Shown one piece after another: positions 1 to 2,528 of a stretch of DNA of 3,976 bases (the stretch's first letter is position 1; the number at the start of each line of letters is the position of its first letter). Made by a program: the position numbers and the translations under genes. Source of the DNA: a virus (lineage: Duplodnaviria; Heunggongvirae; Uroviricota; Caudoviricetes); IMG/VR virus record IMGVR_UViG_2579778535_000019; one strand, 5' to 3'. The notes beneath the pieces are model-generated. The model did no database searches. It worked only from the letters and a program-made list of their open reading frames with translations, and was not told the DNA's origin.

Positions 1-156
1 CGCGCTGCACTGATACGGCTGCAGACGACAACCTTCGTAATCGGCAATCAGTTTCAGCCCCTCCACGGAGGTGTGAAGCTGCTGAAAACCCGGCAGCGTG
101 GCAGCAATAGCCAGCACGGCCCCGACAAGGCAGCGTTTAACGATTGATGGATTCAT
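1..156 (-). CDS. Phage endolysin, SAR-type lysozyme (T4-lysozyme-like fold, P1 Lyz-like); N-terminal 52 codons only, 3' end lies beyond the window start
   Basis: ATG at 156-154 on the minus strand, preceded by GGGAGGA (159-165). Translation by hand: MNPSIVKRCLVGAVLAIAATLPGFQQLHTSVEGLKLIADYEGCRLQPYQCSA. Ala/Gly-rich weakly hydrophobic N-terminal segment followed by the E-G-C ... P-Y-x-C motif characteristic of SAR lysozymes with a caging cysteine. Not in the ORF track because it is truncated by the window edge. Confidence 0.75.
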   Translation of the reverse strand, partial: MNPSIVKRCLVGAVLAIAATLPGFQQLHTSVEGLKLIADYEGCRLQPYQCSA

Positions 157-352
157 AGTCCTCCCGCGAGATCTGCCCGTCGCGCAGAAGCTGGTAGGCT
201 TTGTGTTTGTAGTACCAGTTGATAGCCAGCATCAGCACACCAATCATCAGGCCGCCCAGCGTTGAGGCATCCTTGATGGACAAATCGCCCAGCCAGGCCA
301 GCACGACGGCGATGCAATACGTGATAAAGGCGCTGATTCGCTCAAGCGTCAT
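137..352 (-). CDS. Small class II holin (possible pinholin), 71 aa, two predicted transmembrane helices and a charged C-terminal tail
   Basis: ORF track 137..352; ATG at 352-350. Two hydrophobic stretches (ISAFITYCIAVVLAWLG and LGGLMIGVLMLAINWYY) followed by KHKAYQLLRDGQISREDYESINR. Lies between tail gene X and the endolysin, where P2-like phages carry the holin; its 3' end overlaps the endolysin start by about 20 nt. Confidence 0.65.
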   Translation of the reverse strand: MTLERISAFITYCIAVVLAWLGDLSIKDASTLGGLMIGVLMLAINWYYKHKAYQLLRDGQISREDYESINR

Positions 353-355
353 AAT

Positions 356-559
356 TCAGTCCCATAGCTGGACGGTCTGCACGGTGGTGGTGGTCGGAAT
401 GTCCGGCAGCTCCACCTGCAGCCCGTGAGGTAAAAAGGGGCCATATTCGGCAAGCCCCGGATTTGCCTTCAGTACCTGCTCCGTGACACCCTGCGTGCGC
501 CCGTAATGACGCCAGCAAAGCGCGTCCACCGTGTCATACTGATGCGCACGCACTTTCAT
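356..559 (-). CDS. X: Phage tail protein X (P2 gpX family, LysM-like), 67 aa
   Basis: ORF track 356..559; ATG at 559-557 with a GGAG upstream. Sequence MKVRAHQYDTVDALCWRHYGRTQGVTEQVLKANPGLAEYGPFLPHGLQVELPDIP... matches the remembered gpX pattern (…D.LC.RYYGRT.GV.E.VL.ANPGLAE.G..LPHG..VELPD…), and 67 aa is the expected length. Its start overlaps the L stop (TGATG). Confidence 0.85.
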   Translation of the reverse strand: MKVRAHQYDTVDALCWRHYGRTQGVTEQVLKANPGLAEYGPFLPHGLQVELPDIPTTTTVQTVQLWD

Positions 560-1023
560 CAGATAAGCTCCACTGTGCAGTGCGGCGCATCCTGCACCCG
601 GCGGATGGCCCAGCGGGCGTCACGCCACAAATCACCGCTGGCTTCTGCCAGTTCTTCGCCTCGCTTCACACCGGATGCCGTGGCGTCATAGTCCTGGTAT
701 CGTTCGTTGAGCATGGCGCGTGCCCAGCAGTAAACCGCATTGAAATAGTGCTGAATGCGCTCACTTTTGCCGTCCAGCTGCTCCGACGGAACCTCTGCCA
801 GCGAGGCATATCCCAGCACCTGCTGGCGTCTGCGAAACTCATACAGCTCTGCGTTGACCTCCGAAATTGCCGACAGCGCAACCTGCTTTAAACGCGGCTG
901 CGTCACCGTGCCGTCAGTGCGCATGACACTGCGAAACTCCGACAGGTCCACATCAGGCCAGAACGGCGTGTTTCTGATGATTTCCGCCTGTTCCGGTGCC
1001 TGTTCTGGCGCAACAAACTTCAT
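559..1023 (-). CDS. L: Phage head completion/stabilization protein (P2 gpL family), 154 aa
   Basis: ORF track frame 559..1086, but the likely start is the internal ATG at 1023-1021, which has a strong SD (AGGAGA, 7 nt spacer) and begins MKFVAPEQ. It sits immediately upstream of and translationally coupled to X, as gpL does in P2-like phages. The 21-codon upstream extension starts at a GTG with no SD. Confidence 0.65.
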   Translation of the reverse strand: MKFVAPEQAPEQAEIIRNTPFWPDVDLSEFRSVMRTDGTVTQPRLKQVALSAISEVNAELYEFRRRQQVLGYASLAEVPSEQLDGKSERIQHYFNAVYCWARAMLNERYQDYDATASGVKRGEELAEASGDLWRDARWAIRRVQDAPHCTVELI

Positions 1024-1089
1024 GCTGCTTTCTCCTGAAATAGAGGGCGGTGGACGGGGTTTTGATGTGGCAGTGCCTTTCGCCACCCC

Positions 1090-1112
1090 GTGCCGCCCGT
1101 GCGCGGGGGCAC
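1090..1112. other. GC-rich imperfect hairpin (9 bp stem with one bulge, 4 nt loop) in the region between the cII remnant and L
   Basis: GTGCCGCCCG tgcg CGGGGGCAC read directly from the sequence. No adjacent U-tract on either strand, so it is not a canonical intrinsic terminator. Confidence 0.3.
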
Positions 1113-1240
1113 GTTCTGTCAGCGGCTGTCATTGCGCAGTCTGCGCTCCAGCTGCTGTTTGTCTTTTTTCACGCCACAGCGGGGATCGAGCTGTAACGCA
1201 TGGTTGAGATGATTAAGGGCGGAAGCCGGGTTGCTTTCAC

Positions 1241-1579
1241 TCAGGATACCGCACCTGCAGCAACACGCCCGATCTCTGCGGTTGCACTCATGACGTAATG
1301 TGACAGTTTCTCTTTTGCCACCTCATTAATCGGTACACATGGCAGACAATGAATCTGTGCCAGAAAACCATCTACCAGCGTTGAATCTTCAGTCAGATCG
1401 GTAAGCAGCCAGATTTCTGGTGCGGTTAATAGATGAGGCTGAGCTGGGTTCAGCTTGTTCCGCAGAATCTGCACATTCATGCCTGCACGTTCTGCCAGTT
1501 GCACCAGATTGTGGCGCAGTGCAAATGCACGACAGGCTTCATCAAAATGTGGATGTTTGGAAACTTGGTAATCAAACAT
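1241..1579 (-). CDS. cII: Phage regulatory protein CII-like (186 CII / CP76 family), apparently C-terminally truncated (112 aa)
   Basis: ORF track 1241..1585 begins at TTG; the likely start is the ATG at 1579-1577, giving [49 protein letters not shown]... with an HTH-like segment. It is the second gene of the operon after the Cox/Apl-like gene, as in phage 186. Phage 186 CII is about 169 aa (established knowledge), so this copy appears shortened. Confidence 0.65.
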
Positions 1580-1611
1580 GGTCAATGCCTCTGATGTATT
1601 TCAGAATCGAA

Positions 1612-1833
1612 CTAATTAAGGTTTAGATTGCATTCTGAAAGCGCATCAACGGTCATGGCTGCTATGTTGATCATCACTTTTTCGCGTTTTTTATCTTTGC
1701 GCAAACGGTGACGGATAAGGCGTCCGTCAGCCAACATGTCATTGATGGTATCGATGGACAGCCCTGTCAGCTCGCTATAGCGCTCAATAGTCACATGAGG
1801 CGTGGTAAGAGTGATTGAAATGTTAGGTCTCAT
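1612..1833 (-). CDS. Cox/Apl-like small DNA-binding protein (excisionase / repressor of the lysogenic promoter), 73 aa
   Basis: ORF track 1612..1833. First gene of the leftward operon, divergent from the repressor gene. Its size and the central segment [28 protein letters not shown] resemble the Cox/Apl winged-helix family, and the position matches cox (P2) / apl (186). Confidence 0.6.
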
Positions 1834-1958
1834 GATGCAACATTCCTCGTTTAATGATGATTAATCAGGACGAATACGGATCGTTTGTATTTTGTGAACA
1901 CCATAAACATACGATCGCACAATGAAATCGTCAAGATAAAAGTTCACTTGGAGTGACC
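1834..1958. promoter_or_regulatory. Lysis-lysogeny switch region between the divergent cox/apl-like and cI-like genes
   Basis: 125 bp AT-rich intergenic region. Contains a direct repeat ATACGGATCG (1874-1883) / ATACGATCG (1908-1916), two GATC sites, and an imperfect inverted repeat around 1888-1912 (GTATTTTGTG ... CATAAACATAC). Confidence 0.5.
1906..1934 (-). promoter_or_regulatory. Candidate sigma70 early lytic promoter (pR/Pe-like) reading leftward toward cox/apl
   Basis: On the minus strand: -35 TTGACG (1934-1929), 17-nt spacer, -10 TATGTT (1911-1906). Predicted start near 1899, giving a leader of about 65 nt before the cox/apl ATG at 1833. The second copy of the ATACGATCG repeat overlaps the -10. 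Confidence 0.4.
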
Positions 1959-2528
1959 ATGAATTTGGAGAAAGGCGGACGAGGCGCTATAGAGCGCATG
2001 GTAGAAGCTTATGGATTCAAAACTCGACAGGCGTTGTGCGATCATTTAGGAATCTCTAAAAGTACACTCGCCACACGCTACATGCGTGACTCATTCCCAG
2101 CAGAATGGGTAATCCAGTGCGCCCTTGAAACGGGCACCTCGCTTAATTGGCTCACAACCGGACATGGTTCAAAGCAAACTTCAGGTAATACAAATACTAT
2201 GGAAGTTGCTAAATATGTATTATCTGATGGTGCCTTGCGTGAAGACGGTTTTTATATTTTTGATAAGGGATTTTTACCCTCTACGTTTAAAAAACCTTTT
2301 GTCATCACAGATAACAATTCTGAATTTATTTGTGATAAAGAATTTGATGATATACGTGATGGTAAATGGGTAATAAGTATTGATGGCGAAGTAACGATCC
2401 GTGACATTACTCGTTTACCCGGTGGAAGAATCTTCGTCGAGGGTGGAAACAGAGCCTTCGAATGTAAGATAGAAGACATTGAAATAATTGGTAAAATTAT
2501 AAGTTTAACAGTCAAGTATGTTAAATAG
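1959..2528 (+). CDS. cI: Phage CI-type repressor (186 CI-like: N-terminal HTH domain plus C-terminal oligomerization domain), 189 aa
   Basis: ORF track 1953..2528 begins at GTG; the likely start is the ATG at 1959 with GGAG 5 nt upstream. The N-terminal segment ERMVEAYGFKTRQALCDHLGISKSTLATRYMRDSFPAEWVIQCALETGTSLNWLTTG fits the 186 CI-type HTH domain. Length is close to 186 CI (192 aa), and the gene is divergent from cox/apl and upstream of int. Confidence 0.8.
   Translation: MNLEKGGRGAIERMVEAYGFKTRQALCDHLGISKSTLATRYMRDSFPAEWVIQCALETGTSLNWLTTGHGSKQTSGNTNTMEVAKYVLSDGALREDGFYIFDKGFLPSTFKKPFVITDNNSEFICDKEFDDIRDGKWVISIDGEVTIRDITRLPGGRIFVEGGNRAFECKIEDIEIIGKIISLTVKYVK

Follow-up and report, generated by a model that had tools for sequence, protein, structure and literature searches.

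Lysis genes at the left end of the window

The stretch of DNA analysed here, called the window throughout, comprises 3,976 nucleotides from a virus of the Caudoviricetes (IMG/VR record IMGVR_UViG_2579778535_000019). Its first 352 positions carry, on the minus strand, a holin gene and the start of a gene for an endolysin of the phage P1 Lyz type, i.e. a lysozyme with an N-terminal signal-arrest-release (SAR) domain. An earlier sequence-only reading had taken this pair for a lysis module made up of a pinholin-like holin and a SAR endolysin and had placed the remainder of the endolysin gene on the contig to the left. Here, we report that the region is very probably the remnant of a lysis cassette in a defective P2-like prophage, in which an intact HP1-family holin gene accompanies the first 52-53 codons of the endolysin gene. 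The features of the window are collected in Table 1.

The holin open reading frame (ORF; minus 352..137) encodes a protein of 71 residues, MTLERISAFITYCIAVVLAWLGDLSIKDASTLGGLMIGVLMLAINWYYKHKAYQLLRDGQISREDYESINR, with two hydrophobic stretches (residues ~6-22 and ~31-47) and a basic/charged C-terminus. The endolysin ORF begins with the ATG at 156..154 (minus) and reads MNPSIVKRCLVGAVLAIAATLPGFQQLHTSVEGLKLIADYEGCRLQPYQCSA up to window position 1. It is preceded by the Shine-Dalgarno sequence GGGAGG, which is located within the holin ORF, and the earlier observation that the holin 3' end overlaps the endolysin start was correct. The holin matched PHROG 20 'holin' with an E value of 2e-26 and belongs to the HP1 holin family (PF16080, Phage_holin_2_3; TCDB 1.E.7), as shown by an E value of 4e-9 and 36.7 bits against a cut-off of 28.8 for residues 6-57. 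Database proteins identical to it carry the name 'HP1 family phage holin'. With PF04971, the phage 21 S family, the score of 23.2 bits stayed below the cut-off of 26, and the holin is not a member of that family. A scan of NCBIfam yielded no specific family for the holin or for the endolysin. Phage Cartapus encodes a holin that is 100% identical to the window protein and an endolysin of 171 residues, a GH24 lysozyme with a complete catalytic domain (PF00959, E 3e-40; E41, C50 and T56 present), the first 52 residues of which are identical to those encoded in the window. Because of the Pfam and PHROG matches of the holin and the identity of the 52-residue N-terminus with that of a 171-residue phage lysozyme, both ORFs are real genes and not chance ORFs.

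The endolysin N-terminus is of the P1 Lyz type

The segment that opens the endolysin is preceded by K7 and R8 and has the properties of a SAR domain, being an uncharged, weakly hydrophobic helix rich in G, A, S and T (seven of the 15 residues from 10 to 24) that lies ahead of the catalytic region. Its summed Hessa value of +1.5 kcal/mol (15 residues) makes it the least hydrophobic of the segments compared (P1 Lyz -1.0, HP1 Lys -0.7, RrrD +0.35). A weakly hydrophobic segment with C9, followed by E41, C43 and C50, is thus present as the sequence-only reading had it. When the Cartapus endolysin was compared with solved structures, the best matches were P1 Lyz entries 1XJT (E 3e-26) and 1XJU (E 8e-25), with EGCRLQPYQC aligned to EGCRRDPYMC. 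In the alignment, C9, E41, C43 and C50 fell into the columns of C13, E42, C44 and C51 of P1 Lyz, the N-terminal sequence of which was confirmed in P1-like genomes, and the column of C9 also holds C11 of HP1 Lys, in which C43 and C50 likewise have their counterparts. RrrD, an enzyme of the R21 type, has none of the three cysteines.

Conservation was examined in a set made up of close homologs and 50%-identity representatives, for which residues 41, 43 and 50 and the N-terminal region were tabulated. A cysteine in the SAR segment was found in 15/15 full-length diverse homologs (<65% identity) that have the E-C-C pattern and an N-terminal hydrophobic segment. Four further E-C-C homologs are without this cysteine; their N-termini are short (15-23 residues) and start downstream of the cysteine column, which fits mis-called start codons. 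With these four counted as failures and a background of 40% assumed, the binomial probability of the observed conservation is 6e-4. The stub therefore shows the combination that marks the P1 Lyz type, namely a cysteine in the SAR helix, a cysteine two residues after the catalytic glutamate and a cysteine at the position of the catalytic aspartate, and the proposed likeness to P1 Lyz was upheld by the alignment. The assignment of this N-terminus to the family of P1 Lyz-type SAR lysozymes is well supported by these comparisons.

It appears very unlikely that the N-terminus of this endolysin family is instead a cleavable Sec signal peptide or a stable anchor and that the cysteines are incidental. 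Residues 16-18, A-I-A, can be read as an AxA cleavage site, but this motif is not conserved among the 15 homologs. SignalP-type tools called a signal peptide in HP1 Lys (PMC7312051); however, the signals of P1 Lyz and R21 were found by experiment to be uncleaved, and SAR domains are not cleaved (PMC6116005). Moreover, the cysteine lies in the very segment that cleavage would remove and yet occupies one column in all 15 diverse full-length homologs as well as in P1 and HP1. A stable anchor is opposed by the finding that known SAR domains are longer and more hydrophobic than the endolysin segment. In phage Mu, SAR behaviour of gp22 was assayed by complementation with S21-68 (PMC9239132).

Phage lysozymes of the T4-type GH24 family have the triad Glu-8X-Asp/Cys-5X-Thr, and the catalytic cysteine of P1 Lyz is kept in a disulfide until the SAR cysteine isomerises it (PMC3556154). 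By homology with P1 and HP1, the cassette may be pictured to work in intact relatives as follows. The lysozyme would be exported by Sec, and its weakly hydrophobic SAR helix would keep it inactive in the inner membrane, where C50 at the catalytic position would be locked to C43 by a disulfide. Once the holin collapses the membrane potential, the SAR helix would exit the bilayer, and the thiol of C9 could then attack the caging disulfide, such that C50 is freed and the enzyme refolds. The residue-level details of this mechanism in P1 Lyz (C13, C44 and C51) were reportedly given by Xu et al. in 2005.

The endolysin gene is very probably fused to gpD

The window encodes E41 and C50 but not a complete catalytic domain of the GH24 family (PF00959). 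When the truncated cII protein encoded further to the right in the window was looked up by exact match, 33 contigs were returned. Two of them, L003 and L004, match the window with 100% identity over its full 3976 nucleotides, and a third, L005, does so over 2469 nucleotides, to its own end. In 3/3 of these identical contigs, a lys'::'gpD junction, CAGTGCAGCGCGGGTACCCGCCG, was found directly beyond window position 1, where the sequence reads GGT/ACCCGCCGTGAAAAATCG (here and below, a slash marks the breakpoint). Lysozyme sequence ends with G53, 3 nucleotides beyond window position 1, and gpD begins 4 nucleotides beyond the edge. After G53, the native ...AGVWTDGIG is replaced in frame by TRREKSWHK..., that is, by the C-terminal 250 residues of the tail protein gpD. 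To the left of window position 1, GGTACCCGCCGTGAAAAATCG denotes the gpD-fusion form, and GGTGTCTGGAC together with an ORF of 171 residues denotes the intact-lysozyme form.

The resulting chimera has 304 residues and was found on several contigs. Its only Pfam match is Phage_GPD, over residues 54-283, and no lysozyme domain was detected. In the identical contigs residue 56 is an arginine, and both the catalytic T56 and the lysozyme fold are absent. From these contigs we infer that the source genome very probably carries the lys'::'gpD fusion. The rest of the endolysin does not, then, lie to the left of the window as had been expected, and a full-length protein with a lysozyme fold, on which the sequence-only reading had made its case depend, is lacking at this locus. 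It is impossible for the chimera of stub and gpD to yield an active lysozyme. The lysis mechanism proposed for the intact relatives cannot run in the window genome because the gpD fusion removed the catalytic threonine and the whole lysozyme fold. One edge of the window falls where the lysozyme-derived stub ends and the other at the stop codon of int, which would fit a cut at annotated feature boundaries.

Other endolysin fusions were seen as well. In numerous E. coli assemblies, a near-full-length endolysin passes, near residue 160, into an additional C-terminal part of ~135 residues (proteins P0006-P0049, 296 residues; P0051, 288 residues), which carries PF28015 in the source annotation, and other endolysins are fused to a gpD fragment (PF05954). 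Both kinds of protein are additional products of fusion or decay that go back to this cassette.

The holin lacks a SAR-like first transmembrane domain

The description of the holin as pinholin-like stood in part. It holds, on sequence grounds, for size, predicted topology, gene context and family: the protein is a small class II holin with two transmembrane domains (TMDs), for which an N-in/C-in topology is predicted only, and its gene lies beside that of a SAR endolysin. It did not extend to the first TMD. TMD1 (ISAFITYCIAVVLAWLG) has a Hessa sum of -0.56, a Kyte-Doolittle (KD) value of 2.12 and six G, A, S or T residues among 17, and its hydrophobicity equals that of TMD2. In contrast, TMD1 of the S21-type holin EssD has a Hessa sum of +6.5, a KD value of 0.48 and 11/17 such residues, and TMD1 of HP1 Hol has a Hessa sum of +3.9. 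In this comparison with S21-type and HP1 holins, which is a test of composition only, TMD1 of the window holin does not look like a weakly hydrophobic SAR domain that leaves the membrane. Because TMD1 is not SAR-like, the S21-type mechanism, in which TMD1 exits the membrane and licenses TMD2 oligomerisation, is not supported for the window holin by its composition. No dual start was found in the window holin.

HP1 Hol, the founding member of PF16080, behaved in experiments as a pinholin partnered with a SAR endolysin, and it is for this archetype only that such behaviour was shown. It caused lethality without lysis and did not let out beta-galactosidase, and timed lysis depended on it. Its gene shares an overlap with the beginning of a SAR lysozyme gene, the product of which is 49% identical to P1 Lyz (all PMC7312051).

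Comparison with known lysis cassettes

The best solved relative of the endolysin family is P1 Lyz (1XJT, inactive; 1XJU, active), which is likewise a GH24 enzyme with an N-terminal SAR helix and has the same spacing of SAR cysteine, glutamate, caging cysteine and catalytic-position cysteine. Identity between P1 Lyz and the window family is ~40%, as estimated by eye from the alignment. P1 Lyz is complete, whereas the window locus keeps only residues 1-53. The partner holins of P1 Lyz also differ, being LydA (canonical), LydC and LydD and not an HP1-family holin (PMC9025707).

A close counterpart is hol-lys of the P2-like phage HP1 (Adamczyk-Poplawska et al. 2020, PMC7312051), where, as here, the gene of a small class II PF16080 holin overlaps the start of a SAR lysozyme gene. 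HP1 Lys has the SAR cysteine and the EGC-x6-C motif (C11, E47, C49 and C56, counted by hand on the sequence). The HP1 cassette has no dual-start antiholin and continues with a LysB-like spanin. Identity with the window proteins is 21% for the holin and 34% for the endolysin. The gene overlap is 7 nucleotides in HP1 as opposed to 20 in the window, and TMD1 of the HP1 holin is weakly hydrophobic (+3.9) as opposed to the strongly hydrophobic TMD1 of the window holin (-0.6).

A two-TMD holin of ~70 residues beside a SAR GH24 lysozyme is also found in phage 21 (S21/R21) and DLP12 (EssD/RrrD). The S21-type holins resemble the window holin in TMD2 and the juxtamembrane stretch, LGGLMIGVLMLAINWYYKHK in the window, with the match to PF04971 remaining sub-threshold. 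They differ from it in having a SAR domain as TMD1 and, for S21, a dual start. R21 and RrrD have an aspartate at the catalytic position and no regulatory cysteines, unlike the window endolysin.

The nearest relatives of the window genes are those of the Elveevirus phages Cartapus, 4LV2017 and KP12. Their L-X-holin-endolysin region is 98% identical at the DNA level to window positions 1-1100, and for Cartapus the 98% identity extends over positions 1-1246. These phages have the full endolysin of 171 residues, a LysB spanin and all virion genes, whereas the window lineage has the lys'::'gpD fusion. The near-identical KP12 endolysin has been reported to resemble P1 Lyz and to have a conserved SAR domain, and it was modelled on 1XJT; the cassette was called P1/P2-like, and the adjacent holin was modelled as a heptamer with low confidence (PMC9902359). 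In P2 itself, the same late-operon position after L and X is taken by an unrelated module of Y, K and lysA. Y is a class I-type holin of 93 residues, K a soluble enzyme of the lambda R kind that has neither a SAR domain nor the cysteine motif, and LysA an antiholin; in BLASTP comparisons the P2 lysis proteins showed weak or no similarity to the window proteins.

The window belongs to a defective prophage

The remaining genes identify the element as a ~5-kb defective prophage of the 186/HP1-type P2-like phages (Peduoviridae, Elveevirus-like) in E. coli. A second junction, cII'::M', lies within the window and reads GCGGT-A-TCCTGAGTGAAAG, with cII cut at about codon 110. The deletion behind it took out fil, the replication genes, cos and the genes for portal, terminase, scaffold and capsid. 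Because this deletion removed replication and head genes, the prophage is defective even from the window alone. In the identical contigs, the chimera is followed by ogr, attR and the chromosomal gene ybjL, and int adjoins rcdA on the opposite side. The remnant thus has the order int, ydcA-like, cI, apl, cII', M', L, X, holin, lys'::'gpD, ogr and is inserted between rcdA and ybjL. A complete set of replication, capsid, portal, terminase, tail or lysis genes was not found at the locus.

Table 1. Features of the window and of the adjoining gpD junction (positions are window coordinates unless a contig is given).
Feature	Position	Strand	Basis or remark
P1 Lyz-type SAR endolysin, 5' stub, codons 1-52	1..156	-	translation; identical to Cartapus endolysin residues 1-52
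Catalytic-region stretch E41-C50	7..36	-	aligned with EGCRRDPYMC of P1 Lyz; Thr 56 outside window
Endolysin residue codons	C9, 132-130; E41, 36-34; C43, 30-28; C50, 9-7	-	
SAR-type N-terminal hydrophobic segment, C9-F24, CLVGAVLAIAATLPGF	85..132	-	SAR Cys C9 codon 130-132
Holin 3' / endolysin 5' overlap, 20 nucleotides	137..156	-	holin stop 139-137 inside endolysin ORF; same overlap annotated in Cartapus
Holin gene, intact, class II, two TMDs, HP1 holin family	137..352	-	71-residue ORF; PF16080; PHROG 20
Holin TMD1	~287-337	-	
Holin TMD2	~212-262	-	
gpX tail protein gene, 67 residues, intact	356..559	-	PF05489 E 2e-34
gpL head-completion gene, 154 residues from ATG 1023, intact	559..1023	-	PF05926 E 2e-50; 154-residue call in L003
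Small-terminase gene M, 3' remnant, ~42 codons	1119..1246	-	Cartapus match (98%) stops at 1246
Deletion junction cII'::M'	1246..1247	.	cII homology ceases at 1247 and gives way to M homology at 1246
cII-like regulator gene, truncated, 112 residues instead of 169	1241..1579	-	PF06892 profile positions 1-110 of 146
Apl/Cox-like excisionase-repressor gene	1612..1833	-	PHROG 575 E 6e-31
Promoter-like site TTGACG-17-TATGTT upstream of apl, candidate early lytic promoter	1906..1934	-	consensus match only
CI repressor gene, 189 residues	1959..2528	+	PF07022, PF16452; L003 gene call
YdcA-family small secreted Cys-rich protein gene, 63 residues	2544..2735	+	NF007463 115.8 bits, above cut-off of 93; PF27300
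Tyrosine integrase gene, 350 residues	2924..3976	+	PF24624, PF00589; L003 gene call; window ends at stop codon
gpD junction	L003:11580-11583, 1-4 nucleotides left of window position 1		

No terminator-like sites were found on either strand of window positions 1-2000, where shuffled sequences average 1.6. Because of the promoter-like site upstream of apl and the lack of terminator-like sites, it may be inferred that the late genes L, X and holin, together with the chimera, would in this remnant be co-transcribed from the CI-repressed early promoter.

Two observations concern the right part of the window. The YdcA-family protein encoded between cI and int has a hydrophobic N-terminus and four cysteines and falls into PHROG 6000 (unknown function); its gene looks like a lysogenic-conversion 'moron'. 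For the integrase, the ORF list gave a version of 402 residues from ATG 2768, and the gene calls on identical contigs and the Pfam domains fit 350 residues from ATG 2924.

Many deletions end at the same gpD nucleotide

The gpD endpoint of the lys'::'gpD fusion recurs. At least 14 different left partners were found joined to the same gpD nucleotide (...GGT/ACCCGCCGTGAAAAA; protein ...T/RREKSWHK), including lys, cII, gpA, T, V (twice), W, I, U, a sheath gene and a tail-fibre-like gene. At the DNA level, the breakpoint at ...GGT(A)/CCCGCCGTGAAAAA, where native gpD reads ...CTGAATA/CCCGCC, was observed with five left partners (lys', cII', gpA', T' and a gene beside portal). In the chimera protein cluster, at least 11 different in-frame partners are all fused at ...T/RREKSWHK. 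Examples of the junction, which carries the tag sequence TACCCGCCGTGAAAAATCGTGGCATAAGACC, are contigs L003, L006, L010, L011 and L012 and proteins P0389-P0403. Most left ends terminate in (G/C)CGG. As the right flank is complementary to this motif, the junctions form short palindromes, GCGGGTACCCGC in the window-type junction. The cII'::M' junction of the window has the same cII end and a right side similar to that of the gpD junctions.

Several causes were considered, and none found support. In the case of an integrase secondary site, the att core, AACAAAAAACCCAT, is unlike the junction. In that of cleavage by gpA, an HUH nuclease, at a pseudo-origin, the P2 nick site has no significant similarity, and strain L9 has its gpA' breakpoint elsewhere than at the origin. 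TCGTGGC-ATAA is common to the Cartapus origin and the gpD flank, but 14 nucleotides out of register and with a shuffle p of only ~0.03. A general property of P2 relics is not supported in view of the K-12 yegZ-ogrK relic, which is truncated elsewhere. Among gpD matches spread over E. coli genomes, gpD was mostly intact. We regard it as doubtful that the stub is one product of a sequence-directed deletion process and not of random decay.

A probable relic of a lysis cassette

The history we consider very probable would comprise two events. Through an illegitimate deletion, codon 53 of the endolysin gene would have become linked in frame to the sequence for the C-terminal part of gpD, and a second deletion (1247/1246) would have brought cII up against the end of gene M. 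The holin gene and the stub lie behind the CI-repressed early promoter and are, most likely, relics that are silent and were inherited recently, not a working lysis system.

Several points weigh against this interpretation. The window ends 3 nucleotides short of the gpD junction, such that the truncation is deduced from the identical contigs, which come from drafts and metagenomes (33 contigs carry the diagnostic cII' protein), and none of 5,426 complete E. coli genomes searched had a contiguous cII'::M' or lys'::'gpD arrangement. The presumed silence of the holin is drawn only from the promoter-like match, the lack of terminator-like sites and the intact cI. The disulfide mechanism ascribed to the endolysin family is transferred by homology. 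Finally, the E-x-C-x6-C motif alone is not diagnostic of caging: many soluble GH24 relatives without N-terminal extension or SAR cysteine carry E-G-C-x6-C or E-G-L-x6-C (proteins P0285-P0388), and cysteines at the catalytic position and at +2 are thus common beyond the SAR enzymes.

The remnant could also have been domesticated, the holin and the in-frame SAR(1-53)-gpD chimera having become, via the two deletions, a retained membrane-active module behind the CI-repressed promoter. Conceivable roles would be regulated death, vesicle release or exclusion of related phages. Holin, X and stub differ from their Cartapus counterparts only synonymously, but this pattern is the look, in sequence terms, of a recent relic of a functional phage and is uninformative on selection after the deletion. 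The gpD fusion is in frame and leaves an ORF of 304 residues; however, one fusion in three would be in frame by chance, the frame is not kept with other partners at this junction, and the NCBI gene calls skipped the chimera. Intact cI and ogr and the lack of a terminator-like site between early promoter and holin would suit a retained module. Yet a sister remnant in E. coli strain EC06 (L006) is without exactly window positions 1-1246, its cII' with the same breakpoint being joined directly to the same gpD nucleotide, and the holin segment is therefore dispensable. Domestication is thus in our view very improbable. The M'-L-X-holin-lys' block is flanked by GCGGTA and GCGGGTA and has been lost or gained as a unit.

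Very improbable, too, is a cassette that is intact and functional and of which the window merely cuts the endolysin gene: intact cassettes with 98% DNA identity exist in Cartapus, 4LV2017 and KP12, and the junction itself lies outside the window, but every truncated-cII contig that reaches the endolysin edge has the gpD fusion, those contigs are 100% identical to the window, and the cII'::M' junction inside the window already makes the prophage defective.

With the relic as the preferred explanation, the original proposal of a holin and SAR endolysin lysis module is right at the level of gene families and fails as a functional reading of this locus, where a stub of 53 codons in a defective prophage is all that is left of the endolysin. 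At the family level it is already known and adds nothing new as a lysis system, since the combination of a P1 Lyz-type SAR endolysin with a small HP1-family holin has been documented for P2-like phages and near-identical intact genes have been annotated. The locus teaches that a convincing N-terminal motif at the edge of a window can be a 53-codon pseudogene stub and that a lysis call needs the whole ORF. P1-type regulation is indicated only by E-x-C-x6-C combined with a SAR-helix cysteine. As to the HP1-family holins of enterobacterial phages, their TMD1 is fully hydrophobic and, should they be pinholins, TMD1 release as in S21 is probably not their mechanism. The recurrent gpD endpoint may merit a separate look as a question of prophage decay. 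If a specific enzyme or DNA structure did drive the gpD deletions, this would be an undescribed route of prophage reduction in which the 'gpD-ogr end is retained and in-frame chimeras, for instance SAR(1-53)-gpD, can remain beside an intact holin.

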